Assembly: GCA_964525635.1 (NCBI GenBank)
Contig: CAZGJX010000005.1
Location: forward strand, 1 to 64,000
Direction: 5' to 3'
From: an uncultured archaeon
GTDB taxonomy: Archaea; Asgardarchaeota; Lokiarchaeia; Sigyniarchaeales; SOKP01
Length of the DNA: 64,000 nt
A program made the position numbers and the translations under genes. The notes beneath the pieces are model-generated. The model had not been told where the DNA came from and did no database searches. It was given only the letters and a program-made list of their open reading frames with translations. Positions 24,235 through 61,800 of this stretch are shown piece by piece. Numbering within the stretch: the first letter of the stretch is position 1; every line of letters starts with the position of its first letter.

Positions 24235-25764
24235 TCAATTTATTTTAAGGGAAGGAATGTCTTTTAAAGATTGAGGAATTTTTTTTATTTTATTTCTTGC
24301 TATAGTTAATTCTTTTAATTTTAGTAAATTTCCGAAGGAATCTGGGAGATCTTCTATACTGTTATCTCTTAGACCTAAGAATTCTAAATTTTTAATCTCT
24401 CCAATTGATTCTGGTATTTTTCTTAATAATTTATTTTCTTGTAAGCTGAGACGCTTTAAATTTTTCAATTTACCTATATTAGAAGGAATCTTATTGATTT
24501 TATTATATCCTAAAAATAATTGCTCTAGATTTATTAAATCTAATATAAATAATGGAAATATAGAAAGGTTATTATGACTTAAAGAAAGAAAATTTAAAGA
24601 AGTTAAATTTAAGAGATTTGGTAAGACTTCTAATTGATTATCATCTAGATGTAATTCTTTTAGATTGGGGAGGTTATTTATTGACTGAGGAATCTTGTTT
24701 AACTTATTCCTACTTAAATTGAGAATTTCGAGGGATTTTAAATTTCCGATGGTCTCAGGAATGTGGCTTATTTCGCATAAACTTAAATCGAGGTATTTTA
24801 ACTGTGTTAAGTCTCCAAGAGATTTAGGAATTGAAACTTGATACTTACCAGAAAAATGGCTTAATTTTGCATTCTGAAGGTGCACATCTAAAACCTGCAA
24901 TAACTTACATTTATTTATCCATTCAGGCACTTTAATAAGCTCATTCTCACTAGCATCAAGCTCTTTAAGACGGAAATGAAGTATTTCTTTAGGTAATTCA
25001 GTAAGATATAATTTGCTCAAATCAAGCTTTCCTTTATTTACCATTTTCGCGAGGACATCGATTTTCTCAGCTTTGGACAAGCGGAAAAATAGCTTCATTA
25101 ACCAGTGTCTAGTTAGATATAAGTCTTTATGTCTGAGTAACGGTTTTAAGTCGAACAGATGAAGGATAACAGGTCTATGGAGTTCAGGACTTAAAAGGTC
25201 CAGAGCTCCTTCATGTAGCAATACAGCAATCATATCTATGTCGTTTCCCTCAAAAAAGCGTAGTAGAAGGGTGTCTTTTTGTTCTTGAGTGAGGTAGTTA
25301 AGAAATTTGCGCACTAAAAGATATTTAACAACATTTTTGCTTCTACTTTCGAACCTTCTGACAATCTCTTGCGGGAATTTAATTTTGGCCTTAGGGTCGC
25401 CGACGTCAACGAGTTTTCTCAGGAGTGGGAAGGCGAGATTGCTGTGGAGGAGGCGAGTATCGTAATCATGTTCGGCCCACACTTGGAGATTTGAGCAGTG
25501 AGCCCAGAATTCAACTTGAGGGGGTATTTTAACGGTGGTCTCTTTTGGTCGTTCTAGAATTGAGTTGAGGTGCTCCTTCGCATCGTCGATGGAGTCAATT
25601 TTTTCGAATTCTTCAATCTTATTGGCGGGTATCGACAAAAGCAGGTATTTACACTGTAGAAACCTTTCATTATTTACAAATATGACTGTTTTTCCATCTC
25701 TGAGCTTTAAGGTGATAAATTCATTTATTTTAAATTCTGGCGAGGGTGGAATATATACAGTCAT
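24235..25764 (-). CDS. Leucine-rich repeat protein with Lokiarchaeia-type N-terminal domain
   Basis: About 10 LxxLxLxxNxL repeats in the C-terminal half. N-terminal EFKINEFITLKL...EFWAHCSNLQVW...DTRLLHSNLAFPLL domain. No signal peptide. Confidence 0.9.
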   Translation of the reverse strand: MTVYIPPSPEFKINEFITLKLRDGKTVIFVNNERFLQCKYLLLSIPANKIEEFEKIDSIDDAKEHLNSILERPKETTVKIPPQVEFWAHCSNLQVWAEHDYDTRLLHSNLAFPLLRKLVDVGDPKAKIKFPQEIVRRFESRSKNVVKYLLVRKFLNYLTQEQKDTLLLRFFEGNDIDMIAVLLHEGALDLLSPELHRPVILHLFDLKPLLRHKDLYLTRHWLMKLFFRLSKAEKIDVLAKMVNKGKLDLSKLYLTELPKEILHFRLKELDASENELIKVPEWINKCKLLQVLDVHLQNAKLSHFSGKYQVSIPKSLGDLTQLKYLDLSLCEISHIPETIGNLKSLEILNLSRNKLNKIPQSINNLPNLKELHLDDNQLEVLPNLLNLTSLNFLSLSHNNLSIFPLFILDLINLEQLFLGYNKINKIPSNIGKLKNLKRLSLQENKLLRKIPESIGEIKNLEFLGLRDNSIEDLPDSFGNLLKLKELTIARNKIKKIPQSLKDIPSLKIN

Positions 25765-25820
25765 TTCTATGATTACTATAAGTAATTTTCTTATTTAAAT
25801 TATTGGAGAGTGAGGAATTT

Positions 25821-28800
25821 TTAAATTCTGAATATGGAATTCCATGCTTCAGCAAACTCCTTTAGTAATGGTAGGGTGTACTCGATATTCCCATAAAATT
25901 GAGGATAAGCCACATGAATTTTTCTCAACTCTCTCAAGCTTTTTTGAAGGTCGCTAATTAGATCATCGTATCCTCCAATATATTCAATTCCCCGTGGAGT
26001 AGGTCCTTCATTACCGCCAAATATTTCCGTCTTTTTAAACTGTCCACCGTAATAATCGATAAGGGTTATGAACAGATCCTGTTCCTTATGTGGGACTATT
26101 GCGAAAGAATCTCCTTGAAGGAATAAGCTCATAATCAAGCTAAGATCAAAATCTTTAATAGTCAATTTGTTTGCATCGACTTGATTTTCTTGTATTGTAA
26201 AGACCATATGGGGATCCGCATCGAAACGGCTATTCCAATAGTATTTATCAAGGGTCCATCCAGAATCGCCGCTAAGTTTCCGAATTTGCTTATATGTTTT
26301 TTTATATTGCTCAATAATGTTGGTTAGCTTATTTGTATAACTTTTATCCTGAATAAATCCATCTTTACTTTTCTTTAAAGGCACTAAATATACAGTTCCA
26401 TGGGTGATAGCAGCTTTAGCGATTAATGTTTGGAATGCTTTAACAAAATTGATTATTTCTTCTTTTTGATAAGTTAATCGTGTATTGATGTTTTTATCTT
26501 GTTTTCCGATGGTTATTTTAATAAAGCTTGAGAGAAATTGACCATCATCATAAAATAGGCTTGCTTCATGTCTGAAATGCTCATCTGTTAGATGGAGTAC
26601 GAAGATATCATCCAACTGATTTGGATCAGGATCTAAGCTAAAGTCAAGAGGTGCTGGAAATCCTTTCTTATAAAGCAGAGCATTTTTAAATAGTTTTCTT
26701 ATCTCGGGTCTTTTCCTAATATTTAAGATATAATCAAGGCGATCTCGAACTATTGCTTCATAATATTTTTGATTATCTTTGAAGAATTTCTCTTCATTAT
26801 CCTCTTTATTAAATTTTTTACCTACCTGACTGTTCCAAATCGTCATAAGTTTATCCAGTATGTTCGCCATAGCGCTGCACTGTATATCTTCTATTGAGGT
26901 GTCTGGACTCCACTCTTTATATTGAGCTGCTATTGTCTCTATTAAATAGTCTGAATATTGATTGGCAGTAATTGGGTTGAATTCTCTATTCTTTTCTTCG
27001 GACGTCTCTAATAATTTATTATTTATGTCGGCAATTGAAGGATTGGAGGAATCCCAAGTACTCGAATCTAGAATATTCATTGCGTCTATATATTTAGTAT
27101 TTCCTGAGATTTCTATAGCGATTTTAACGCCTGCTATTACTGAACCTAAAAGATAATCTATATAATCATCCTTATATTTTGAATCTACATATTCCATGAG
27201 AAAGGAGAGCCTTTCTAGATTTTTTAAAATTAAATGATTTTTTCCTAAATTTTGATCTAAAATTTTTCTTTGAAGGGAGAGGGGGATAAGCACGCCATCC
27301 TTAAACATTGCGCTTCCTTCAAGCATTTTCAAATAGGTAATTCTTCCAAGTATTGCTACAACTAATCTATGTAACTTCTGAGCTTTTCCAAGAGTCTCAT
27401 CAGTCCATTCATCTGTAAAACGATTGTTTTCTTCAAAGACAAAATTGTCTATTAATTTATCCATTTCTTTAAACTCAGGAGAGTCCTTTTTATTTTCTTT
27501 ATACTTCTTTAATGTATCCCACATAATGGCCGTCCATTTTTTAACATCTTGCTTCCCATCAAACTTAAGATTCTCGATTAGGCGTTCTTTTCCTTTAAAA
27601 TCATTGAAAAACATATTATCTGAGAGTGTATTGTAAATCTCTTCATAATTCTGAGGATCTAAGTTGTATGCTACTGTTTTTATTATATGATCCAAACGTT
27701 GTTCAACAATGTCCTTCTTTATATTATTCCAATCAGCATATTGTTGGTTTGTTATGTCTGTTGCGAAAATCTTTATAGTAGTTGATGTATAGTGGTATAT
27801 ATATCTAAATATTCCATTTCGGAATGCGATTGATTCTTGGTTGCTTTTCATATTTTTTGGAAAATTCTTATTTACATATTTTACGATAGAATCTGATTTT
27901 CTTGGGAGACTTTTATATTTTTCGAACAACCATGTCCTGTAATCAAATTTGTGACCTTGCCATAAATACGTAGAAGTTAATTGGAATTCGAGGGAAATTG
28001 CGTTTTTAGTATTTCCAAATCCGCTATGTAAGAAAAGAATCGGTTGTATAGCACCCTCCATTCCCTCTTTATTCTTCTCTTTTTTCCATAGATTTTTATC
28101 TTCAAACCAATTTAGCCCTCTATCTTTGACATCTTTATCAATAATTAGCCATCTGCTTTCTAATACATTGGAGTTCTCATCAGTGACCATGAACATCTGC
28201 GATATTTGCAGGGTATCTTTCTCGTCATAATAAGCATAACCTAAATGCCAGTCTGAAATATCTTGTCCTTTTGCTGGAGTATATTGACCTTTTTCATTGA
28301 TTTCCATTCTTATAAATCGATTTATGATATCTTTTCCTTCTAGCTTAAAAGCCCATGCATAGGAACCATCCATCATTCCTGTTGTATCATCTATTTTAAT
28401 ATCATTTTTTCTATTAGTCACACTATTTTCTTTAATTTCTAAAGGTATTTCATCATATGGTAATTTTCTATTAGATGGATAATAAAATCCTAGCATATTA
28501 TTAGAGGTAATTCCATATCGAGTTGTCTTAGTTTCTTTATCAAAATATTCTCCATAATAATCACTCATAGAATTATCAGTAGCGAGAATTTCAAGAAGAT
28601 ATTTTTTTAATTCCTTTTTTTCATTCCTAAAATCTTTAATCAGAGGCTTTCCTACTTGTTTTTCTTGTATTTCATTAAAGGTTGTTTCTATTTCTTGCCA
28701 ATTTTTATCTTCCTCAATGAATTGTTTTAGTTTTAAGCGATAATTATTTTTGCTGTTGTCGTCATTAGATTTAATCTCTTCCCAATCTTTAGTAATTTCA

Positions 28801-31800
28801 TGAATTGTCTCAAAAGCCACTTGTTCAATGAAGAGGGATGGGATTGCTTTAAAAATTCTTTCACTAATAAACGATACTTCTTTACGACCTCCTAACTCCC
28901 CTGGAACTTTCATAAGAAAAAGTTTATTACCTATTACTTTACCAAATCCATCTAATGTTGTCAGACGCTCACCAGTCTCAGAATCAACAAAATCTTCGTC
29001 ACCAAAGAAGGCAGCATTGGCTATAACTCTAGCAGTAGTCTCTTTATTTATTTTTGTCTTATAAAGAGTAGAATAAAATATCATCCTGAATATATCATTA
29101 ATAATTCCCGTTTCACTGATATCTTTCCCTCCCCGACCATATAATCCTTTCCTAACCATTTTGGATGGAGATCCAATAATGATATACTTAGCTTCCTTAC
29201 CATCTCCTATGTCTATAATATGTAATCCTTTCATATCAACTATTTTAATACCCTTTATTACGAATGGTTTACTTTCTGAAAGAATTTGTCTTCCTTCAAG
29301 AGTAAAAGATTCTTCTTGAGTATCAAGAATAATAGGATTAATAATTGTATATCTTTTACTTAAAATTTCTTTTATATCATCGATATCTGAGTTATCCAGA
29401 TCAAAAGTACGAGCAAGTTCATCAAAAATTTCTTTCGGTAGGAGGAGTGACGTTGCTAAAGTTTCAAGGTTAGCACCTTCAACACCTATATATTGTCCTA
29501 AATCGACAAATTTATAAGCTTCTTTTAGTGTCTTGTAATCTTCAACCATTAATATTCCTGGTGGTAGGAATATTGATCCAATGAATGCCTGATAAAGTAA
29601 AAGATTGGGATCAAGCTTTTTATTTTCCGCATAAATATTTCCTAAATTATAATTTTCTTCGAGTAAACAAGAGAGGATTCTACTTAACCTGTAATATATT
29701 TCTCCTTGATTCTCTTTGGAGTTAGGATCGAGCTCATAAGTAGGAATTCCATCTTCAAAAGGTATACTATATAATTGAATAAATAACAATTTCATAATAT
29801 TTTTTCTTAATGCTATTTCAGCAGTTGTTTTTCCTGTTCTTGTATCATATTCCTTGGTAATTACATCAAAAATATACTGTGCCAATGCTGTATAAAATTT
29901 ATTTTCATTTTTCTTTTCATTTTCATTATCTGACTCAGCAAGACCTACATATAAAGTCTCAAGCACCGTTCTAACTCTTTTTTTAACATTTTCATAATTA
30001 AAGTCCTGAGTACCTTCAATGATTTTGTCTGCAAGTTGACCCAATTTGAGAGCAAATTCACCAAAATTCTCATAATAATTCTTTTCGTCATCTTTATGAT
30101 ATTTTTTTCTTGCTTTTTCAATAGAATCACTAAGTTCTTTAGTATTGAAGATCCTCTCAAGATTTCTAGGATTTCCCTTTGTAGGATCACTGGCTACAAA
30201 TCCCATGAATCTATCCAAGAAATACTCTATTGCTTCTATTTCTTCTATATTTTTCCCAAGGGGCTCAAGAGCTTCCCTTGTCTCCCTCTCTAGTTTTGTG
30301 CGAATAGATATCCCAGTTCCTATAGTCTCTTCTATATTCAATATATCTACACTTATACAACCCTCAATGTTCGCAAATCCGAAATAAGTCGCAATTTTAG
30401 AAAGTGTTGTAGTCTTATCGATAAATTTAGTATTTCCAAAAGAATCAGTGAATTCTAAATTAAGATCAATCTTCACTCCTTCTGCTTCAATTTGTATTTG
30501 TGCCAATGATAACTTATCCCTGAGTTTTTGAATTACAACTGCCTTTAATTCATTAATGGTATATTCTCCTTTTACAGGAATTTTTAACATTAAATCTTCT
30601 ATGTATATCTCCTGATATTCACCAGATTCCTCATCAATATCGGCTTCCCTATTCACTTCTATAACACTATTTTTTCCCTCTACCTTCTGTGAACTATCAA
30701 TAGATTCACTAATTTCCTTAATTTGTTTAATATTTTCTTGATTCATTTCTAATTTTTCCTTGATTGCCTGAGCTTTTAATAATTCTTCTATATTAGAAAG
30801 GGGGCTTTCTTTTTTGGACCTACCTTTCTCAGGCATGCCTTCCCTATCAATAGCTAAGACTGTACTAGAAGTTGCAGAATAGGCGGCAATTTTATTATTT
30901 ACGTTATTAAAAACTCTTACTTGTTGCTGTTCATCAGTCTCGGGTACAACAGGAATTGTAGGCAGTCTTTTCAAATCCTTAACAACACTATCATCAATTA
31001 ATACTCTAGTATTAAGCATTAAACCTGGCTTCTTAAGACTTGAAATAACGTCTTTAAATCTCATTCTGTTATTAAGGTGAATCTGGTATGTGTGCAATAA
31101 TTTCATATCAACATTATCCAGAAATTTCGAGTAGATATATTCTAAGGCAAGAGTCGAGCCTAAAGCTGAGAGACTCGGTATAAATAGGGTTAGCCCACTT
31201 GCAATAAAGAGAGCTGAAAGTTTCTTAATTGTTGGAACTGTCGCTTCCTTGCCGAAAATCTGTAGTTCGGAAATCATAGCTAAAATTGCTTCCCGTTTCT
31301 GTAGCATAACCTGTTCTTCTGATATACCGCTTGATTGCAGTACTACATTATTTAACCAATTTTGAAAGTCCTTATTAGATTTCATTGCAACAAAAATCTG
31401 AGCATTATAGGAAAGGGATTGCTGTGAGATTTGTGCTCCTGTACCGCTGGTAAGGAATCCAAAGAATTTGGTCTCTCTTGCACTTGTCGCAAATGTGCTT
31501 AACCAGAAGCCAAGCTCATCAGACCAGCCCATGGTTCTCGCTATACTCCCAACGACAGTCTCAATAACTCCATCTATGATGACTTCTTGCATAACTTCTG
31601 AGACTGTGCCTACAGCGGTTCTCACCGCCATCTGAGTTAATAGATTTTTTATAATTTGCTGTGATGTTACTCTCTGAATTTGAGATGCCATTATTGAATT
31701 CAAGGCCTGCATCGCCACTTGTTTTCCTGCCATTGCCGCGGCCTCTGTGTATGCCTGTTTTGCAACTCCGGTTAAGTATGAGCCCAAAATGATTAGCGGA

Positions 31801-34800
31801 GTGGATATAATAGTCGATTGTAAGGTGAGATCCTTTGTGTATTTCATTTCAGCGACCATTCCCGCTGACTGTGTTGCAAATGAATACTGATTAAAATAGT
31901 CCATAACCATATGAGAAGTTATCTGAGTTAAGGCAAGTTTTGCTGTCTCTTCTGTGGTGTCAGGGATTATCTTTTCGAATTCAATTTGAATTTTATAATA
32001 ATATGTACCTGATGTGTATGCGTTAAGTGTGATTAATTCATTAATAGGTGTCATGAAATATAGGTCTCCAGAATCTAATACATAATCAGAATCAGAAATC
32101 TCAAGAGGATCACCTATTTGTGTGCTATCTTTATATAAATACAATAAAATCTGTGATATAGGATATTCAAATCCGCCGATTTTAGAGGCTAATGGAATTT
32201 TGTCTTTATAATCCATAGTAATTTCCTCTTTTGAGAGCTCCTGAGTAGTAATTCCCCTAGTATTTTCTATTTGGGGAAGGGCAACCTCTATTGTAAGATA
32301 TCCTGTCGTTAAATCATATTTCCTCAATTGGTCATAATGATCTTGGTCGACCACCAAAGGTTTATAAAGAGCTTCATTAAATCCTCCTTCTATATCTGAG
32401 AAAATATAGGTTGGAGCACCATCGATACAGGTTGGGATCACCGAACTAAGTGTTCCATTCGTCTCCCTAGAGATGGCATAGCTCACATATCCAAGCGTAT
32501 TTTCCTGATATTGTGTATATAAATCTGTAGAACCTCCACTTTGGTGGTACCTATAGAATGGGATGTCATTATATGTATAGAGCTCACTTGAGACTAAAAA
32601 GAAATCTAAATTCTTATGATCAAAAGGTAATTGCTCGTCTGGGGGAGTAAAATCTATAAGCCCTCCTGTTAGTAGAAAACTGGCAAGATTAGAATATACA
32701 CTTACAGCCCTATCTCCATTTGGAGGGGACGCTATAACATGGGCAGTATAATCATTTCCAGGATTGCCCCCCACCACTCTTGTATAATAAGCCCCTGTAT
32801 GCCCTGTCAGCGCTGCTGGAAGGCTCTCACCCCAGAAATCGTCCCAGTAGTCTTTCTCATTAAGAGATTTGGGACTTCTTCTATTTACATTCTCAGGATA
32901 GAAAGTGTCTGCGGTCTGAACTGAGGTCATTTCATGCATTTTCAAATCCATAAAATATTTAGTAAGCAGGGAATACACAGCAAAATAGGCAGCATGAGCT
33001 AAACTTGTTGCTGTGCCATATGATAAAATAGTAATTAATGAGCTTGCAGCAGAAGCGATTAACGTCGACAGTACCTGCTCTCCTACATCTCCTAAAAATT
33101 GAGCATCATATTCTTTCCAGATTCTACTATATTCTCGCTTCCTGGCTTCATAGAATAATTGAGGATATTTCGAGATTTGACTGCTCCTATTAACCAATTT
33201 TCTCACTTCAAAGATATGGTCTTTTGCAACCAGTCCATCGTCTATATTTACTGGAAAAAGTAATCTCTCATTATCTAATCTTTCATATTTATATCTCCAG
33301 TTCGAGCCATATATTTTATGACCTTCCTTTGAAAGAATGTCGGTATAATCATCTCTAAGAGTCTCATATGGGCTTTCTACCTGTTTCCTAATATACGGAC
33401 AGAAGCTATATTGCGTGGGAGTCCCGTAAATATATCCAACTGAAATTACGTTATACTTGCCATCACAGTTACTATCATTTTCAACAATATAGACAACATC
33501 ATATAAGCCATCACTGTTGGAGTCTACATAAAAGTAGCTACCGGATGTCTTGGCGCCCCAACTATTTTTAAATGAGTCCTTGTCAGAGGTGTAATATACC
33601 CGTCCATCCGGAGGGGTTATAAACACTCCCGTAATAGCAAGTTCAACATCTCCCACAGCATTCGAACCTTTATTGTAGTCGTAATAGGTGCTAAATCTAT
33701 TGGGAAGGACAAGGGTAATTTCTGTCTCATAGAAATTGACGATCTCATCACTTCCATCCTCATTTAAAATTTGAATTGAATCGTATTTTATTGGGATTGC
33801 ATCTTTTCCATAATCTTGCCAAGTCTCTTGTGTATAACCATTTATAGTTATAGGGGTATAAATAGCATTTGCTACGTTAAGAGAGACTTCGGATTCGACA
33901 CCTAATTCAAGATCCCTTATTATACGCTTTCCTTCTCTCGCTAAATTAAAAGACATTCCAATTTGTCCATCATCAAAGAGATCGCGATAACTTCTAATTG
34001 AGATTACTTCTCCTTTCTCAAATTCCTGAACTGTAATAACCTCTGACTTCACATCTTCCTTAAGAGATTCTACTCCCAATTGAGTATATTTTCTATAGGT
34101 TGCCTGTAAAGTAGATTCTAATCCAGGATAAAGATAGGTAAATCCATCTGGGTAATCAAAATCATAGTTATCTAATTTTTCTTCAGTTAAGATTTCATTA
34201 AATATTGCATCTTCTCCACCTCCTCCGCACAATCGATCCCAAGAGGCAACCGTATAATCTACGATGTAGTTTTTCACATTCCTTGGCTTACCAGCAATTA
34301 TTGCTCTCTCTTCCTTATAATTCTTTACGTGAGATATTGTAGTCTCGCTTTCATAGGTTATTTTCTTATCTGCATATGAATCGCGGTCCTCATCAACAGA
34401 AATCATATAATATTTTGAGGTAATTTCTCCGAAAATCTGAGTAGAATCCTGCATAAACTTTTGAGCATAATAATCCACATCAGGGAGAAAGATTCTGGCT
34501 ACTGTCTCGAGCAAGGCAAGAGTGTTAAATATTCCGAATCCAAGCCCTAAGATTGTGGCTAAATTAAATTCATAGTCAGCAAATAAGCTATCGTCGATAT
34601 CGAACCATTGCGTTCTCATTACCTTTCCTTGCGAAATATTGAAGAAAGAAGATGTAAGTGTTGAGTCTTGAATAATGGTATGCCAAATAATACTATTTTC
34701 TGTAGCATTGAGAAATCCGTATTTTGTGATATCAAATACGCCATCTCTATCAATATCGATAATTTGTTTATAATCTGGATTTTGATCCATATCTAAATCG

Positions 34801-37800
34801 CATTCCAAAATTATATTATATGGATCGTAATAGATTTGAAAATCTTCAAATAAGTTTGATGTATCAAATAACTCTGCTGTAAGATCTGACTCTGCCCGTG
34901 AATAATTAAGAGCTGTAAATGAGGTATAATCAGAAACAATTGCATCATGATCTTGAGAAAAAAGGATATATCCATCATTATATGCATATTCAAAAGAGAT
35001 GGATAAGTACTCATAGAAAGAATCTTCTATATTGGAAAGGTAATCACTTCTAAATTGTTCTGATAATGTTAATAGCGTAAAACTTGATACAGGTCCTGTT
35101 GTATAATTAAAACTTATAGTAATATAATCATAATCAAAAAGAGGCGTACCTCCTAAAGTTATAATCGTGAATGTATTATCAATCTTATCTAATGTAAAAT
35201 AATAATTGCTATAGTCGTTTCTAATTTCTGACCTAGTAAGGTTTGGAAAGACGCCAACTACATTATAAAGTTCAAAATTTGTGAAATTAGTAGCAAATGG
35301 CTGCTCAACATTAAATTTATGAATGTAAGTATCGGAAGACCTATCATATACAGTAAACGATTCTTGATAGAATTGTTCTATATTATAATCATAAGAATCA
35401 CTATTATCAATTACTTCTCCTAAAAACATTTCATATCTTGGAGTTAATGGAAATCCACTCTGACTATAATATATTTCAAGGGAGTTAGCATCTATATTTT
35501 CGTAATTAAGAGCAATTGGAACTTTCCATGAAGTGTTTGTACAGTAATTAACGTAAAACGTACTGTTAGGATCAACCATGTGGGGTAATGCAATTTCAGA
35601 TCCTAGAAAATCTTGATATCTATCAAATTCATCATTCCAAGTAAGCGATCTATTAGCATCGTGATAAATTAGCTGGTCATTTACTCCCAACGCTCCCGCT
35701 GAATAATAAATATAATTATCATCAATAATATGAATATAATTTAACCATATATCTTGAGTATCGCTATCACCAAATAATAATGGTTCATTTTCAAACGCAA
35801 GAGTATAGGAATCATCAGTTGGATTATCACCTGCTGTGAATTCCTCTGTCTCTGTAAATCTCCAGATTCTTGTATCAAAAGAACTACTTCCAGAAGTACC
35901 TTCAATGATTTCGACAATTTCTATTTGATCAATTGTTATTTCATATGAAAGATGAGGTGCCGAAATTAGTAAATGAGAAAATTCAACCATGCTGTCAATA
36001 GCATGTGCCTCAAATTCGGTAAGATTTAATTCAAATCTGACTTCTTTAAATGAGTTGGTGATCTCTGTATCAAATGGCGTTATTGGAAGTTCAATGTGAT
36101 AATAATAATCGTCGGTAAACTGCTCATAAGCAGTGCTGCTTGATGCGTTCACAAGCATTATCTCAGCTTCATAGTTAAGATCGTCATAAAGTGCATGTTT
36201 CTTGTTGAAATAGGTCTTCTCTATTCCGATAGAGACAGAGTGCTCCAAGGGAGTCTCATATCGTATGATAAATACATCCCCATCGGCAAATTCCAAATGA
36301 TTGGTTGAATTGAAAGGATCAATAAATATGCTCGGAATTTCTAGAATATATACATCTTGCCCTAAGACATCTTTTTCAACCCTATATACATAGTTGATGT
36401 CCTCTGGTAGGGCAATATAGTTCAGCTCAATATCCCATAAATAGACAGATTCCACCTGCCCCTCATTTAAGGGAGCTGAGAGCTCAAATTCCATATATGA
36501 GACTCCTTCACGCTCTAAAAGATCCTCTGTGGACCATACTGCATAGTCTATAGTCGATACTTTTGTATTAGAAGGATGATACGGTCCTTGGTCTGTAAAT
36601 TGGGGAATAATAGATATTTTCTGAAGGGTATTTACACTAATAGGTAAATTAACCTCAATATTGGAATCCCACATCACAAGATCTTCAATTGAGATTTCCT
36701 GTGTATATCCCTCAATAATACCTGTAGTATCATTTAATATAATAATAATTGAGTCTAATGCATTATAATTCTCAATTAGAGCATTGAAAACAAGGGAGGA
36801 GTATTCTCCTCGATGAATGCTCTCAAGAAGATCAGGGCTGAACCATGATAATTCACCTGCTAAATCAAATACAAGAGTCTCACCCCTCTCTAGATGAGCT
36901 CCTATCTGAGTCGCATAACAGCTTACATTATTGTAAGAGCTCTCACCATAGTCGGCAAACCAATGTGCTCCAAGATTAGGTATCGTATCAAGAGGCTCAC
37001 CATCCATAACAGTCCAATAATTGAGATCAAGTGGTCTCTCATTATCCAATGGTGAGTAAGAAAATTTATATGAATTAAATGCTTGATCGTTAAGGGATGG
37101 AATGAATGAAATCCAGAACTCGTATATGTTATTAATTGCAACAATATCATTGCCATCGTCTAGCAATGTTATTGTATGAGAGGTTGTATCTATTGTATAA
37201 TGGCTTTCATCAAGAATTTGTAAAAGTCCTTTCTCGTTATAGTAATGGATTCTAACAGAGGGAGTTCCATCTACCTCCTCATATACATCTATAGATTCAT
37301 TTAATCCTATTGGAATATAATCATATGTATATTGAGGGTTATTATAATTAAATTCGTGCTTTTCATCATAATAATTCCTCTCATTTAGACGATAACTTAA
37401 ATATAACATATAAGTACTGTCAAGTGATAATCCGTATTCAAACGGTGTAATGATTGAGCCTCCTGATAGTTTTCTGTATCTCTCTCTATAGTTAATCAAT
37501 GGATTGTCTGAAACATCTGTAGCAGCATCATCGAGCAGTTGTTCGAAGGAATGAGACCAAGGATAAATAACTGTTAAGAAATGCTTTCTATCAAGGAGAG
37601 TTGGAGCTTGTTTGTAATAATATTGGATAGTGATCTGAGAGCCAGGAGTAATATTTGTCTCATTAAGGATGATGTTATTATCTACTATGCCAACTACATA
37701 TTTATCAAATTCAGCATCAATATTTGAAGTATAAGGACCATTAACACCTATCGTAATTGTGATATAGTAATCGCTAAATTGAGAATCTAACCTATTGTAA

Positions 37801-40800
37801 ACAAATGGTGTCTGGGAGAGTCTATATTTTGTCTGCCTTGATTCATATTTAATATGAATAATTGATGTAGAATCTTCAAGAAGCTCAAATCCATCAGGGA
37901 TATCGTGCTTAAATGCTGTATAATTGAGATAATATCTCCAAGTAGTTGTATTATCTTCTATTATATATTTATTAGCAGTGCCAATGGTATACCTCTGAAT
38001 TGTGCCTGTATTTTCTCCATCCCAGATTTGACAACCTACATGTGTAAAAATATCGATACTAAACTGGTCTGATGGAACAACATTTAATATTGAAAATCCT
38101 TCAAGCTCATTTGAATTTGAATCCTCATAATCTACATAAATCTTACTTCTTAAAGTTGGTTGAAAAGTAAAACTATCTTGGGTGCTGAAAATATAATCTT
38201 GAGATACAGTTCCCCAATCCAGTGAATAATAGGAGACCTCAAAAGACTCACCAAAATTAAGGTCTGGATGGAGTGTAAATTCATTTATGCTTTTATATGA
38301 ATAATCCCAAACAAGTCGGGTAATAAGTGGATCTTCTGGACTTTCTCTTAAATAATAATCAATTCCTTCGTTAAATAACGCATATGCCCAGAAATCCAAC
38401 ATAATTAAATTATCTATAGCAGAATTATTCACCTCTTCTAGGGAAATTGTAAATAAAAGATATTTAGAACCATTATTTAGATATTGAACTGAGTAATTAC
38501 CTTCGGGTATAATATTCTCAGATGGAATAAATGAATTACTCTCAAGATTGGTATTTACATTGCAATATGTACCATCGGTATACTCACCTGTTGGGTAGCC
38601 TTGAATAGAGAGATCATATTGATAAGGCTCTCCAATCTGGCGGATTGAGGAGATTGCTACATCATCAAGTAATCGTAAGCCAAATGTAGTATTAGTATGA
38701 ATATGAGGTCCAAAGAGGTCCAATACCTCTGATTGCGATACCACATTCCTTGCCAAATCAAATAATTGATGGTATAACACTGTCCCTCTTACATCAACCT
38801 CCCTTGTAGATAGGAACTGGTCTGTAAGAATGATAGTGTCGTTCCATGAGGTTGCTTTCATATATCCATTGTTATTTGTAAGAGAAGAGGTATAATCGGC
38901 TTTATATAAATCATCAGCATATCTTATTCTGCAATCTTTTTCATGAGAGGTCTGACCTGAGACTTCTGTCTGAGCTCCTGAATAGAGTGATAAGTATCCT
39001 TCTTCATAGCGTGTCTCTTCTAAATTGTAAGAGTTAAACAAAAGTCCTAAGTTTGTAATCATATTAAAGTCGTCATCAGAGATAGTTAGAGTCTCTTGTG
39101 TTCCTATGTAATTAAATTCATAATTATTTAGAGATACAAGATCAGCATAATCCATGTCTTCCACGGCTATGGTTATTTGAGAATTCTCCCGTAAATTAAA
39201 TGGTGAGGCTGGAAGATATGGATACAATTCGCTATTACGAAGGGGCTCAGATAGAATTTGATAATAGTGATTTGTAGATACAACAGATTGCACGTCCATA
39301 TTACCGAGCCGATCCTTTGGCATAAAATCATACATTTCCACCAAATGTGTATCGCATATATATTCCCAAGTATCAAGCAATATATATGATAAATACTCAA
39401 CACTTTCTCCTTCTTGCGACAATACAATGAATACGTTGGTATTTCCAATACCAAAGGCATTATAGAGTGCATCCAAATTAATTGATTTTGTAACTCGATA
39501 AATACCATTATCTAATTGAGAACTTATTTCATCATAATTCAGCGAAATATTGAGACTATCATGATAATATCCATTTGTCTGGAAATTATCAAAATAAAAA
39601 TCTATTATTAAAGAATTATCTCCTTGAAGTGCCTTTAGTTGATCGACTATAATTTGATCAAAGACAAATGAGACATTTACCTCTGGAGAAGCCAACAAGG
39701 GAAGATCGTATAACTGTAGGACCGTCTCATTTTCATCAAGGCCAATATAGATAACAGAATCATCAAGTTCAACTGAAGGAAATGGTTCGCTAAGAGGGTT
39801 AATAATGCTATTCATAATATCCTCATCATTGTAAATTAGACGAATTGAGTTGCTATATCTCCTATCTTGCTTCTGGAATCCATATCCTAACTCATAGGAA
39901 GTCTTAAGTCCGTAAATAATCGTAAAGTCCTGAGCTGGGGCATTTGTAAAGTTAACTATTGGATGTCCATTTGTATCTATGTCTATTGAAACATCTCCGC
40001 CTGAAAGAGTTTCTAACTCATCTTTGTTGTAAATAATGACATCATCAATATTTAGTGTCTGAAGAGTATAGTCAAGGGAGTATTCCATACTCCCAGTTCC
40101 AGAAGCACATTCCTGTTTGTATTGCATGTACATGGGTGATCTGGCATCTTCACTACTAGGAAGGAAATTATCTATAAATTTAAATGAGATTTCTGTTGAA
40201 TTAATACTGTTAGATTGTGGTCCAAGCGATATTTTCCCAAAATAATTATTCCAATTATTGGTCTCAAAATTAAATTCAAATGTATATATAACTTTAAAAT
40301 CACTTTGATTATCTGGTACCATATAATCGTTATTAAATGTAATCATTGATTGTTCTAAAAGCGCATTTCCTTCGTTAGCAGTCCAATCAACTTCTTTTAC
40401 AAATTCATATTCCTCCTTATTTTGTAATCCTTGAATGGATATTGGGATTATTTCTACCAAACCAAGCAACTCAAGAAGATTGCTATTGGAATCAATAGAA
40501 TAGGATTCTACTTCAGGATCATAGGTATGCTTGACCTCAATTCCATATTCTACATCATCAGATATTCCTCCTAATGTGAGAAGACCTGACTGACTTGAGA
40601 TCACATTAGGATCGATCTCTAAAGGAAATTCTGTTGATTCAAACTGATCTTTAAAGAAAGACCATGTTGTATTTGGATTAGAGGAGCTAGGATTCTTTTC
40701 TACTCTTAGGTCTAATAAAAATATATCTATATTTCTATTTTCATTATAAATTGTATCTAACGTAGTCTTTTCTATATTAAACGTAATATTTACAATATTA

Positions 40801-55800: not shown

Positions 55801-58800
55801 CCAATTTCATTCCAATCATCATCATAGTTAATAACTGTTCTACCACTTCCGTTATACCAAGCATATGAGACCCACCAAGAGTTCTCGTCTCTTCCAAATT
55901 GTCTTGCCAATAGGAAATAATTCGGATTCATTAAATCACATACTACAATACCATTGCTAAAATCATTATCGAATCTATAAATATAACTTTCCCATTGATT
56001 ATTAATACCAACACACAAAATCCACCAGTAATTATTATAGTAAGAAATCCCCCATGCGGTATTAGCTCCTATTGATAATTGATATTGATCGCCAGTTGGA
56101 GTCCAATCATAATGATATTTTGTAACATGATCATATGAGAGAACATACCAATACCTATCAACAAGTATTATATCATCCCCATCAATATCCCAACTATCTA
56201 ATACATTTGAAAAATCTCTATTGAATTTACACACTCTACCGCTTCCTTGATATCCCCCAATTATGTACCAATATCCTTTATGAAAATAATATGAATTAAT
56301 TGCATCAATATAAGGAGCGGTCTTGGAAGTCTGACCTAAGCGATCCCAAGTGGTTTGGATTAAAGTAATATTTTCTGTTAGATAATTACTCATTTGTGGA
56401 GATTCTTTATAAAATTCGTAATTTACATTATTATAAAGAATCCAAGAACTCCCATCCTCTTCAAAATCCTCTTCATATATATTCTCTCCCATTGCAGGAT
56501 AAAATGTGAGATAGGATTCTATATCGTCTCCATAATATTGAACAGTGTAATTATATAGATCATCACTTTCTAAAGATCCTGATATACCATCACCATTATT
56601 TCCAAAAGGATATCTATAACCTCCATTATAGTTTATACCACCAGAACCGAGCATGTCATTATAATACATAACGGAATCAAGATTAGTTGATTGCTCCTGA
56701 TAGGTATACCCTAAATTAAGCCCATTATTTTGAGTAGTATAGCTATCTGTAATTAATGAGGTGTCTAATATATTATTTTCTTGCATCTCATCATGAAAAG
56801 AATAAATAATGTTAATATCTGCTGATATATGAGAAAATGCATTTTCAGGAGTAGTTAAAAAGTCCGAATAGGTAATTTCATTTGTCTTTGTATCTCCTAT
56901 TTGAGATATCATATCCTTATATGCTTGGAAATCTGCTTGATCTTCTATTCTTTTATAGAATTGATGCTCAAGCTTGGTAATTAATAATTGCCCTGAAAGA
57001 GGATAATCGATCTCAATACCAGGACAAAGAATTTCTGGATCAGCGTCTTCATATTCCCATATTGGATCACCAGTAAGATATGTAGAAGGTTCAAAATTAA
57101 GATAAGCTTTCCAAACCTGTTGAGAACAATCATAAAATACTACTAGACTATTTTCATTACCGCCATAGTCTAAATATCCTCCATCCTCGTTCACAGGATC
57201 TTCAAATGTGAAGGAAAGCTCATCATTTAATTTAAATGTAATATTTCCTCCAACATCGTCATAAGGTATATTAAATCTAAGCTCTGCTCTATAGGCATCA
57301 TGACTCGTAAATTGATTACTGATCTTTTCAGCTATGATTGAGTCTATATCAATGTAAAATGATGCTAAATTTGTTACTAAAAGTTTTAATTTGAGCCTAT
57401 AATTTTGACGAGAAGAATCATATAATCTTATAAAATCATTTTTATTTATGGTAATTTTAAATGTATCATCATCGATAATTTGGACTTGAGTAGGGATATA
57501 TTCACCTGTAAAATCTCTATAAAAGATCTGAAGATTATTTTCAAGTAATAGAGGCGAATATGCAAACACTGTTATTTCCAGCTTATCTAAATCATTAATT
57601 CCATCTATTGGTTCTGTCTCTATGTTGAATTCAATTTCATGTTCCTGTTTTTGTTGGGAATAAATTGTATAAAGATCACCATCAATATCCTGTAAAGAGA
57701 CAGGAGAGAAAAGGTACCCATCCCCAGAGACTATTTGAATAGTATTTTCAAGGAATCTAATGTACCCTGTTCTAACTTCTGATTGCACTTCGGGAGTATT
57801 GGAGATCCCTTCATTCATTTCAAACCCGCTTCTTCCTTCTAGTATTAATCCATTTTCTGTCATGTCAATATTATCGCTGAGAGATTGTGTACTTAAATAT
57901 GTATCAAAGTCCTCATAATTCAAATAATTAGTATTTGTTCGCGTAAATGTCTTAAAATCGCCGACGGTGATGTATTCATATGGTAGGATAGATAATTTTT
58001 CTGTACAAACTTGGATTCGAAATTCTTGGTTAAGATTCAAGTAATCTCTGTAGAATGTAGATGGAGTTACGGTTTCAAATATTCCATATGGATTTGGAAA
58101 ACGAGTATATTGAGTAGTCTTAAATCCATTGACTAAATCTAAGACAATGTTATTAAGCTGATATTTGTTTGATAACTCAGTAGAATTTTGATAAATAGAT
58201 ATTTGAGATTTATCGGCTTGTAAGACATTTTTCTGATATAATCTAGAAGAATAATCATTATCAAGAAAATTTCCACCATTTTCAACCAAAGGATCAAATT
58301 CAAAGTGTTCATACTCATCAATAAAATATTGGTTAATACCGAACGATACTGTCTGCATACTATCTATACTTGCTGTACCCCAACCAGGAGTAAACTTGTC
58401 TATAGATGTTTGATATCCCGAGTTGAAAGCCCAGAAATATTCATAATCATATGATGATGTGATGTCTAGAGCTTCCCACCTATCCTCTGCATAATTGTAA
58501 ATCAAGACAGAGAGAGGGTATTCCTCTGTAAATGCTGAAGAGAGAATAGAGGCATCAAAAGCAATTTCAATTGCTTTAATTCCATTTTTATCAACTGTTG
58601 GTATTTTGTTTACAAATTCAAATCCATATGCTTGATTAAGATTGGCTAAAAGAGCGCATATATATTCCTCTCTATTAAGAAGTGCTAATTCTATGTCCTG
58701 GATAGTCGCGTCCTCAAATCTCTCTAAAAATACTCCATCAGTTAGTGCTCCTTGTGATTCAATTCCACCATAGGGTGAATTATATAGAGAAAAGTTAATC

Positions 58801-61800
58801 ATCTGGTTTTGAACAGATATTTCTTGTTCGAAAAAATTATATATACCACTTGATGAATGAATATTATCATAATACATTGAGGAGAAATTATAGGTGTCAC
58901 CTAAGATCGGATCGCTTATCCATACACTATCGATATAATTACCTTCATACTTACCATCAAATTCATCTTCAGCTAAATCGAGTCGAGAATATTCTTTCCC
59001 TTCTAGAGTTTCTGAGAGTATCCCAGAGTCATAGGAATCTCCATAATATATGAGGTTATTCTGGAGTTCTGACATTGAATAATATTCTTCTCCCCAATAT
59101 TGATTATTCCAACCGATTCTTGTGGAGACTGGAATATCTAATAAATAGCCACTTCCAGAGATAACCGATTGTCTCCTATAAGTATTACAATCTTCTAGTA
59201 AATGCAGACTATAATGATTAGACGTACCATAATTGTTTATCCAAGCGAGATCTAATTCATTTTCCCCGTAGAACTGAGCTGATGCTGATGTGTCTGTCCG
59301 ATCAGGTCTTCCCTGAGCCCTATTAAAAGACGGATCTATACTCGTTATTTCCTCACTGTAATAACTTAAAAATGAATAATCAACTTTTATATTTTCAAGA
59401 TTACTCCATATTATACCTAAATATGGATTTTTTAGGTCTAAGTAGATTGAAAATTTATCTGCTAATGTATAAAAGTCAGGAGATAAATAATACCATTTAT
59501 TATTTTCCATAAATGAAATTTTATTAATCTTATCAATTTGATAAGGTCCAAGCGTTAATTTATAACCGGTTCTAAATTGTTCCAACTCTTGACGTGTCTT
59601 AATAGTTGATGTGAAGCAAATTGGACTTGAAATTGTGTATTTATCCTTTAACGTTTCAATATTAATTTCAAATAATCCTGTGTGTGATGCCACAATCAAC
59701 TTCTCTGAATCTTCTTCACTAAGTGCTAATAGATCAAGAATCTGGAACTTTTCTTCTTCAAAACCAGAGATATCTACTTTTATCCAATCATTCGCTTCTT
59801 GACTATATTTTACCGAGTAGACAGTATCCATCTTACCAAGTAATTGCCTTGATAATCCAAGTAGTATTCTTTTTTGACTCTTTTCGATTACTGATATTTT
59901 ACCCAAGATAGAGTTAACAATTACATTTTGAGGATTTAGATTATTATAATCAAAGTGTATTAGTTGAGAATAATAGCTTCCTTCTATTAATCCTCCTATT
60001 AATATAGATTTATCTTGCTCAGATATTAATGACTCAACAATTTTTATAGAACTTGGAATGAACCCAATAGGTGCTTGTTGCCGTACTTTTTTAATTGCAT
60101 TGAAGCCGTCATCAATTTGGTATTTACAAAATGATTGTTTTCCCGTCTCGTCTTCTTGAACCGTAATTAATACTGTCTTTCCTATATTTCCATCATAATA
60201 TAGATCAAACAATAAATTCTTATATTCGCTATTAGAAGTTATATTTAAAAATGAATTCCAATTATCATTATAAAATGAAAAGACATTCATTTGATCGGGT
60301 GAAAGAATAATTAGTTCAGCGATCCCATCTCTATTAATATCAAATAATTTGAAAATTTGATTGTATGAAGAATTAAAAAGACCTTCAGCACTAAGAACAT
60401 CATCTTTTATCCATCCATTTGTCTCGTTAAACTTATAGATAATTAGATCAACATAGAGATCATTTTTGACCAAAATAATTGGCTGAAATTCACCATTAGG
60501 ATTAAACACGCCCCAACTACCCCATAAATTATTTGAGGTTATAGGAGTCACCTGCACGGGAATATAGGAATAATTAAATTCCCTAATTGAATTATAAAAT
60601 TCTGGATCTTTGTTGAAATCCCAAGTTATAGTATAAGAGCCTGCGTCTATAATCGTTGGCTCTGTTGTTATTGGAATCCATTTGTTAGTAAGGACATTAT
60701 AGTATTGCGAACATACATCCCAGAATTCTTCAGAATCAAAGTAATTACTTATTTGTCCAGCTATGATTTGTGAATTAATTATCTCAATTTCATCAAATTC
60801 AAACACATCTCCAAAGACAAGATTTGTAATTAATTCTACCTGAGCAAAATCATATAATACTATATTAGATATTTCAGTAAGATAATTTCCTGCTTTATCT
60901 AATATGAGTACTTTTATATAATTAAAATTGGGAATTTGCTCAAGTAAATCTCCATCCCAGTAATAATTCCACTGATCAATATCACCTGAATAATATGCTC
61001 TCCCTATATTTTCCCAAGAATTGCCATCAATAGAACAATAAAGAAGAATTCTATTAATATCACTCTGTCCTAATGGATTCTTATCTACTAATGAACTTTT
61101 TATTGTAATTGTACTATCAGAATAGGTTTCTGAACCAAAAAGTACAATTCCTGCGTTAGTTGAGTTTGTACCTAAATTCCATTGAAAAAGAGATCCTGCT
61201 TGTTTTAATATGGCAGGATCATATATCCCTTTAAATTTCTGTGTTACTATTGTGTTTCCTAATTGAGCCCCTCCAGTTGCAAGCTCCATTCCATCTGTTA
61301 TTTCAAACCATAGTAAAAAAGATTCACCTTCCGTAATTGTTGGCAGGTAATTTCTAATATCGAAAGACATCAACCTCCATTCCCTACTGTCTGAATCGAA
61401 AGTTAAAGGAATTTTATTTGAAGTTGCTTCATAAAAAGTGGCATAAATCGAGTCTGAGTTTTTAGATGATAATAAATGGCGTGATGATTCTCCAATTTTC
61501 AGTATTAATTTTTCACAATCTAAAATAACTTCAAAATCATTAATTATATATCCTCCAATTGTTATAGAGGTTATTGATTTAATTAAAGAAATATTATAAT
61601 TAACTGGATCTGAAAACCCAATAATTTCATATTCAAGCTTTCCATAATCAAGTTCACCTGAAATTACGAGATTGTGTGATGCAAGGGTTTTTGTTAGATT
61701 TAGACGAACACTTTCAACACCATATTGATAGTAAAGGGGCGTGCTTATCTGCGCCCAATCAAACCCATCAAATGCGGCATCGAATGCCTCAATTGATAAA

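Follow-up and report, generated by a model that had tools for sequence, protein, structure and literature searches.

The stretch of DNA analysed here, referred to throughout as the window, comprises the first 64,000 nucleotides (nt) of contig C5 (CAZGJX010000005.1) from an uncultured archaeon of the Lokiarchaeia (Sigyniarchaeales, assembly GCA_964525635.1), whose genome amounts to 4.45 Mb in 245 contigs with approximately 26% G+C. Most of it is taken up by a single open reading frame (ORF) of 12,721 amino acids (aa) on the minus strand (25821..63986), which we call the giant, followed 56 bp downstream on the same strand by a gene for a 509-aa leucine-rich repeat (LRR) protein (P0001, 24235..25764), which we call its partner. 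This placement agrees with the original prediction, in which the pair was taken to be either a contact-dependent effector-delivery protein with an LRR immunity protein or a giant receptor with a large cytoplasmic domain. We find that the giant belongs to a family in which the C-terminal tail is swapped at a fixed junction, is depleted specifically of N-glycosylation sequons (N-x-S/T) and co-varies with the product of the adjoining gene, an arrangement that in our judgement probably serves the delivery of an effector. The stretch is also found in salt-marsh metagenome runs, at least 8 of 24 containing half of it or more, and genes for TFB and for Ras/Rab-like (Asgard-type) small GTPases lie on contigs that carry paralogs of the giant.

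As translated, the giant ORF starts without a hydrophobic signal-like segment and has no export signal of its own. Upstream and in the same frame lies a second ORF of 1,532 aa (C5:63999-68597, minus strand), which runs from a K-rich N-terminus through approximately 8-10 strongly hydrophobic helices into a LamG-type ectodomain; the two parts form a single open frame in six homologs and joined here they would amount to 14,258 aa. The architecture of the family, realised as one chain in relatives, is a multi-helix N-terminal anchor followed by an acidic LamG stalk of approximately 9,700 residues, a hairpin module and an exchangeable tail. Laminin_G families were the sole Pfam matches over all 12,721 residues and are located in the stalk. 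The ectodomain of about 10,000 residues had been described as both acidic and rich in sequons. It is acidic, with a net charge of -5 to -14 per 100 aa across the first 10,000 aa against -4 to +0.5 in the tail, where the Lys content reaches approximately 10%, but it is not enriched in sequons, aa 1-9700 containing 109 against 114 expected for the composition.

Tail exchange, sequon avoidance and co-variation with the partner

Sliding identity comparisons of the giant with its paralog C4 and with locus L068 of genome G036 gave 55-65% identity up to approximately aa 10960 and only noise after approximately aa 11021-11035, a point beyond which C4 and L068 are still 40-55% identical to one another, and four further pairs within the family break at the same relative position. 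The junction falls in a Pro/Glu/Lys-rich linker some 75-100 residues past the last of four hydrophobic segments (H1 to H4, described below) and 175-200 residues past the best-conserved part of the protein. The stretch from H4 up to the junction (30915..31142, minus strand) is conserved in C4 and L068, and the collapse of identity at its end places the variable tail of the giant at approximately aa 11025-12721 (25824..30914, minus strand), a K/E-rich region of about 1,700 aa. The distal part of the tail, referred to as module B (aa 11953-12721, 25824..28130, minus strand), goes together with the LRR partner.

Variable C-termini behind a conserved zone had been proposed as a check on the prediction and this is the pattern that we observed. 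The zone ahead of the junction is present in 46 of 151 Lokiarchaeia genomes, matches to its 1,260 aa lying mostly inside open frames of 11,000-20,600 aa, and at least six paralogs of aa 9710-10856 were found by tblastn in the same genome, with C-terminal parts that are unrelated or related in subsets only. One family member (G052:C13, loci L032 and L060) lies within an open frame of 20,619 aa. The tail, searched as 1,762 aa against the same 151 genomes, has its sole strong match in one genome of the same genus, G023 (68% over the last 812 aa). Otherwise there were only a fragment (C96) within the giant's own genome and four partial matches, all weak. Module B alone is 68% identical to its copy in G023:C252 and approximately 50% identical to that in C96. 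When the last 1,200 aa were searched exhaustively with phmmer against 1.84 billion representative proteins, the only matches were six short metagenomic fragments. Searches for homologs of the whole tail in the size class of 3,085-5,000 aa and of the proximal tail in that of 546-1,738 aa found none. Tail ends also occur as orphan cassettes, C22 and C23 consisting only of the last 345-640 aa of a C4-type tail together with a partner gene. On two other contigs (C195:3-2186 and C26:3-1946, loci L008 and L009) the end of one and the start of the other share residues of one sequon-free tail, which indicates an assembly break inside a tail gene.

The last N-x-S/T of the giant stands at aa 10510, approximately 200 residues before H3, and the final 2,209 aa contain none, where 5,000 shuffles gave an expectation of 15.6 ± 3.6 and a minimum of 5. 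This bears out the claim that the hydrophobic segments are followed by some 1,700 K/E-rich residues without sequons, and the property extends across the family. In total, 31 tails (35,716 aa) drawn from the window (25824-30914) and from loci L001-L011, L014 and L051-L070 hold a single sequon, three residues from a C-terminus, against 271.9 expected. The avoidance is specific to the motif, as in the same tails the reversed motif S/T-x-N occurs 246 times with 272 expected, Q-x-S/T 159 times with 163 expected and D-x-S/T 265 times with 284.5 expected, and the non-glycosylatable N-P-S/T is present at about twice its expected number (17 against 8.4). Sequon counts are near expectation in the partner proteins (68 observed, 69.8 expected) and in the N-terminal cytoplasmic-type region of the same protein (4 observed, 4.4 expected). 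Genome-wide, ORFs of at least 300 aa contain 6,518 sequons against 6,335 expected; the only ones depleted with a Poisson p <1e-5 are paralogous tails, which also account for the three most sequon-depleted ORFs of the genome.

Cytoplasmic domains never meet oligosaccharyltransferase and neutral sequon counts are therefore expected for them, as seen in both internal controls, the partner proteins and the N-terminal region. From the sequence pattern we infer that the tails lie outside the membrane and are under selection to remain unglycosylated. With sequons missing over such a length of unrelated tails, a mechanical constraint of a general kind seems likelier than the shielding of particular surfaces. 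A gene for STT3/AglB is present in the genome, and in several ORFs with lengths of 1,400-1,830 aa sequons are about twice as numerous as expected (43 against 20 and 42 against 20.6, for example), which suggests that the organism uses N-glycosylation and that selection favours it.

The partner protein consists of an N-terminal domain (N-domain, aa 1-260) and a region of LRRs (aa 265-509). It had been called signal-less, and no hydrophobic signal-like segment was seen at its N-terminus as translated, judged without a signal-peptide predictor; its sequon count is neutral (3 observed, 3.3 expected). Pfam matched LRR families only, within residues 265-509 or thereabouts, and the N-domain (24979-25764, aa 1-262) gave no Pfam or PDB sequence match and nothing meaningful in NCBIfam. 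In the N-domain certain His, Cys, Ser, Asn, Gln and Trp residues are invariant. The family that it defines has at least 1,703 members, in which the domain is joined to LRRs, joined to TPR repeats or stands alone, and almost all members with a named source are from Asgard archaea. Approximately 23 paralogs are encoded in this genome, 8 of them adjoining sequon-free tails in mostly convergent orientation and about 15 lying away from tails. The 56-nt spacer between the giant and the partner (25765..25820, minus strand) contains, 27-40 nt ahead of the start codon of the LRR gene, an AT-rich TATA-like box (approximately 25791-25804), which is a candidate promoter and confirms the suggestion that the LRR gene has a box of its own.

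Linkage to an LRR gene in other genomes had been named as a further check, and LRR-type genes indeed adjoin tails both here and elsewhere and co-vary with the tail end. An LRR-containing neighbour was found at 18-19 of the 31 tails, approximately 12 partners having the N-domain with LRRs and 6 having LRRs only, and the rest belong to small non-LRR families that recur with related tails. Of the 20 loci in other genomes, 13 have a co-directional partner at a distance of 44-81 nt downstream. The closest paralog of our partner within the genome (66% identity over the N-domain, 59% over the full length) stands beside the C96 fragment, and the module B copies in G023:C252 and C96 precede the closest LRR paralogs (63% and 59% identity, respectively). 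In G023 the tail end, the LRR gene and a spacer between them of the same 56 nt and near-identical sequence, TATA-like box included, are conserved together. Across the 31 loci the best partner pairs all go with homologous tail ends, the nearest tail tip and the nearest partner came from the same locus in 13 of 17 loci, and label permutation attained the observed correlation between tails and partners in 3 of 5,000 trials. A co-folding run with the last 482 aa of the tail and the LRR protein scored 0.00 without controls and bears neither way on binding.

The non-LRR partners include a family of 113-185 aa with a KRAIIIKS..RL.KIRNNLR-like start and another of 150-160 aa that occurs as tandem duplicates. 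Such genes were seen at L002:1451-1906 (C9:43450-43905) and L007:4730-6028 (C147) and as the first downstream ORF in L051, L054, L063 and L065.

The conserved hydrophobic zone

The part of the giant conserved across the family, which we refer to as the membrane zone (aa 9700-10959, 31110..34889, minus strand), contains H1 to H4 together with two beta-rich or alpha/beta domains. The segments were located as Kyte-Doolittle peaks, and all four fall where hydrophobic segments had originally been reported: H1 at aa 9808-9833 (34488..34565), H2 at aa 10305-10345 (approximately 32950-33074, within the feature 32937..33089), H3 at aa 10724-10742 (31761-31817), continuing into an Ala/Met/Gln-rich amphipathic run (31437..31829 for the two together), and H4 at aa 10925-10948 (31143..31214), each on the minus strand. 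In an alignment of the zone (A2, 20 sequences with 27-37% identity to the window copy) H2, H3 and H4 are present in all 20 members and H1 is missing or reduced in approximately 4 (L061-L064). The sequence of H4 is poorly conserved although the segment itself is kept in every member.

On the crude scale of summed Hessa dG, H1 to H4 score +2.4, +1.9, +4.2 and +2.5, compared with -4.2 to +1.2 for the upstream anchor helices, and they look marginal, unlike stop-transfer anchors. H1 is probably not a membrane span, and DxDxDG-type calcium-binding motifs can be read from the alignment on both sides of it. An AlphaFold2 (AF2) model of the zone (window 31092-34679, built on the 20-sequence alignment; pLDDT 70.7, pTM 0.72) contains beta hairpins of 26-28 residues and also very long hairpins of helices, whose tips coincide with or lie close to H2 and H3. 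In the model the hydrophobic stretch of H2 sits at the turn between helices 507-552 and 558-591 (model numbering), where it would form the tip of a long hairpin, and H3 with its amphipathic run forms a helix of 73 residues. What had been described as four translocation helices is thus better described as one dispensable segment (H1) and a set of predicted helical hairpins with hydrophobic tips.

Over the 20 members the segment between H1 and H2 holds 46 sequons against 75.9 expected and that between H2 and H3 holds 30 against 69.2, with 1 against approximately 16 from H3 to H4. Positionally conserved sequons occur before H2 at alignment columns 295 and 387 (11 of 20 members each) and after it at columns 1039 (5 of 20) and 1179 (9 of 20), and their presence on both sides suggests that both flanks of H2 face outward. 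Comparison of the zone model with the PDB by Foldseek gave no match at E ≤0.001, the best E being 0.04 or worse, and a VIA-wide fold search reached a best Z of 7.7, which is at background level. The top Foldseek rows, none of them significant, were membrane-inserted pore forms of MACPF/CDC proteins with a probability of ≤0.41.

Probable effector delivery and its alternatives

The explanation that we favour, and hold to be probable, is that the giant delivers a polymorphic effector or toxin on contact between cells and that the cytoplasmic LRR protein is its cognate partner of the immunity type. A tail that is swapped at a fixed junction, that would have to stay free of glycans though it seems to meet the glycosylation machinery, that is cytoplasm-like in composition and that has a cytoplasmic-looking partner would fit an exported effector entering the cytoplasm of another cell, with the partner as its cognate binder or immunity protein. 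In such a mechanism the whole chain past the anchor would be exported, and when the protein meets a neighbouring cell, H2, H3 and H4 of the hairpin module would insert into the membrane of that cell. The tail, kept free of N-glycans so as to pass, would be threaded into that cell and act there as the effector, and the cytoplasmic LRR protein would bind its own tail type and so protect kin cells. Between the two options originally offered, the comparisons favour effector delivery over a receptor, with the toxicity of the tail, its export, membrane insertion, transfer into another cell and neutralisation by binding as presumed properties.

A number of results weigh against this explanation. Pfam gave nothing above cut-off in the last 3,059 aa of the giant, in 10 tails from the same genome or in 17 tails from other genomes, and a search of the 151 class genomes with PF01844 (HNH) gave no match in any open frame longer than 482 aa, GIY-YIG not having been searched for. 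The original prediction reported no catalytic motif, and likewise neither such a motif nor a known fold was found in the tail by Pfam, NCBIfam or structure comparison. The structural check proposed for the tail could be carried only so far, as the AF2 model of the distal 821 aa (9-row alignment) has a pLDDT of 44.7, which is too poor for a fold, and a VIA-wide search with this model gave generic helical matches only (Z ≤5.7). At 600-1,900 aa the tails of the family are far longer than typical polymorphic-toxin tips, and it is ambiguous how many times the chain would cross the membrane after H3. The LRR partners elsewhere are mostly convergent rather than co-directional, and their N-domain is strongly conserved across specificities in a large family with many members not linked to tails, which is more suggestive of a general adaptor than of a classical immunity protein. 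To these is added an in-frame TGA (63999-64001) that parts the anchor ORF from the giant.

Other searches of the same region were also made. NCBIfam gave nothing meaningful on the tail, an ESM Atlas feature search with the last 553 aa gave no usable match, and no known pre-toxin domain or processing peptidase was found ahead of the tip by Pfam. Below threshold, Pfam gave only a ThiS/ubiquitin-like match in paralog C91 (E 0.0017, a mere lead) and Peptidase_S24 in C147. An impression of a ubiquitin-like segment at approximately aa 11125-11215 of the tail was confirmed by no tool.

As no toxic activity, catalytic motif or fold has been assigned to the tail, a non-toxic role has to be considered, in which an exported polymorphic tail would serve cell-cell recognition or adhesion (kin or partner discrimination, for example) and the LRR protein would hold the tail until its export, as a chaperone or export adaptor. 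Recognition would equally account for tails that vary behind a fixed junction, for a cognate partner and for the avoidance of sequons, since glycans could mask a recognition surface; a tail without any enzyme domain fits it well, and the conserved N-domain of the partner resembles a module that docks to common machinery. We nevertheless regard it as rather unlikely, because sequon avoidance is complete over the 35,716 residues of unrelated tails, save for the one sequon near a C-terminus, because the composition of the tail is cytoplasm-like beside an acidic stalk and because orphan cassettes of tail end and partner together with many unlinked partner paralogs are typical of toxin-immunity systems.

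The TGA raises the separate question of whether the gene is decaying or silent in this strain, the 12,721-aa ORF being severed from its anchor (at L012:4000-4002 in the numbering of the locus) so that nothing would be exported. The stop codon lies between the two ORFs in one and the same frame, homologs keep both parts together and the giant ORF alone starts without signal-like hydrophobicity. The remaining 38 kb is however free of stops, so that any lesion would be very recent, and the codon reads TGG (Trp) in one salt-marsh contig from another sample and TGA in another (both at low depth), so that the TGA is a polymorphism, a readthrough site or an error. There is no RNA among the sequencing runs listed for the stretch. 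We consider a silent gene unlikely, and it would in any case concern activity in this strain and not the function of the family.

That the giant is a receptor, its segments spanning the membrane of the producing cell and its 1,700-residue tail signalling in the cytoplasm through a cognate LRR adaptor, would suit the K/E-rich, cytoplasm-like tail, a cognate and cytoplasmic-looking partner with normal sequon counts that combines a conserved N-domain with a variable repeat domain, and the conservation of H2, H3 and H4, whose helices pack in the AF2 model into a bundle weakly like small membrane proteins (Z 6-7.7, background level). It is however the reading least compatible with the sequon data and we think it very improbable, as it offers no reason for tails with 1 sequon against 272 expected beside a normal reversed motif, normal partners and a normal N-terminal cytoplasmic region. 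The hydrophobic segments are also marginal next to the anchor helices, and tails are exchanged at one fixed point and turn up as orphan fragments.

Relation to known systems

By its layout the proposed delivery system may be likened to bacterial cell-to-cell toxin systems, built here of unfamiliar parts. Bacterial polymorphic toxin systems (CdiA-CT/CdiI, Rhs, MafB, LXG; Zhang et al. 2012, PMC3482391) have the same order of parts, in which an anchor or secretion region is followed by a stalk, a conserved pre-tip region and a tip swapped at a fixed junction, and they likewise have a co-varying cognate neighbour, orphan cassettes of tip and partner, and unlinked partner paralogs. By the criteria of that work the giant and its relatives show the three-part layout, the sharp junction, the adjacent co-varying partner, the orphan cassettes and the unlinked partners. 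They differ in having no two-partner secretion (TPS), FHA, RHS, PAAR, LXG or known pre-toxin motif, with LamG as the only Pfam family of the stalk, in a conserved module without a known fold, in tips of 600-1,900 aa without a recognised toxin domain and in partners that are often convergent. Sequon-avoiding tips in an N-glycosylating archaeal host have no bacterial counterpart. CdiA/CdiB two-partner secretion, a type V secretion system (T5SS), was considered and set aside, as Pfam gave Laminin_G only for the 12,721 residues and the host is archaeal.

By analogy the partner can be regarded as a putative immunity protein. Imm-LRR (PMC3482391) is likewise an LRR protein encoded beside a variable toxin-like tip, and our partner differs from it in that the LRRs stand behind a conserved domain of 260 residues that matches no known family and that is elsewhere fused to TPR or to nothing.

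Helical-hairpin membrane-insertion domains are found in the colicin pore domains, the diphtheria toxin T domain and ClyA/XaxAB. To judge from the AF2 model, the likeness of the zone to these is architectural only, consisting of long hairpins with marginally hydrophobic tips upstream of a cargo. Membership of the zone in the hairpin-toxin families is not supported by the structure comparisons (Foldseek E ≥0.04, VIA Z ≤7.7).

Many giant genes of Asgard archaea have no function assigned (Wu et al. 2022, PMC8813620). The Otus and Ephialtes proteins of aloposons described in that work are, like the giant, products of very large Asgard ORFs of unassigned function. They measure 3,000-6,000 aa and occur as tandem pairs in tRNA-integrating elements with a MinD/ParA-like gene upstream, and it is by this description that we set the giant apart from them. 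In the literature on Asgard archaea in connection with polymorphic toxins, contact-dependent systems or giant proteins we found no description of the present family.

Polymorphic toxin systems that depend on contact are familiar from bacteria but are reported to be rare in archaea, where Zhang et al. 2012 (PMC3482391) note a general paucity. If the effector-delivery reading is correct, it would assign to giant genes of Asgard archaea, the lineage closest to eukaryotes, a function in cell-cell warfare or recognition, it would add a new membrane-translocation module and it would suggest what the eukaryote-like LRR proteins in which these archaea abound could do. Sequon avoidance could serve more widely as a simple marker, readable from sequence only, with which to flag parts of proteins that are exported yet unglycosylated in glycosylating archaea. 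As a tentative conjecture, which we would call possible and no better, the hairpin zone of Lokiarchaeia may represent an undescribed translocation module for unglycosylated cargo of more than 1,000 residues carried at the tip of a stalk of approximately 10,000 residues, and the family of N-domain proteins with LRR or TPR repeats may act as intracellular receptors that neutralise incoming polymorphic effectors, an archaeal counterpart and possibly forerunner of the LRR-based intracellular immunity of eukaryotes.

An ABC transporter pair, consisting of an ATPase and a permease, lies directly upstream of the giants and on the same strand on both C5 (69625-71551, L012) and C9 (61376-63311, L002), and may be part of the system. 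At C91:1-588 (L004) there is a divergently oriented ATPase fragment.

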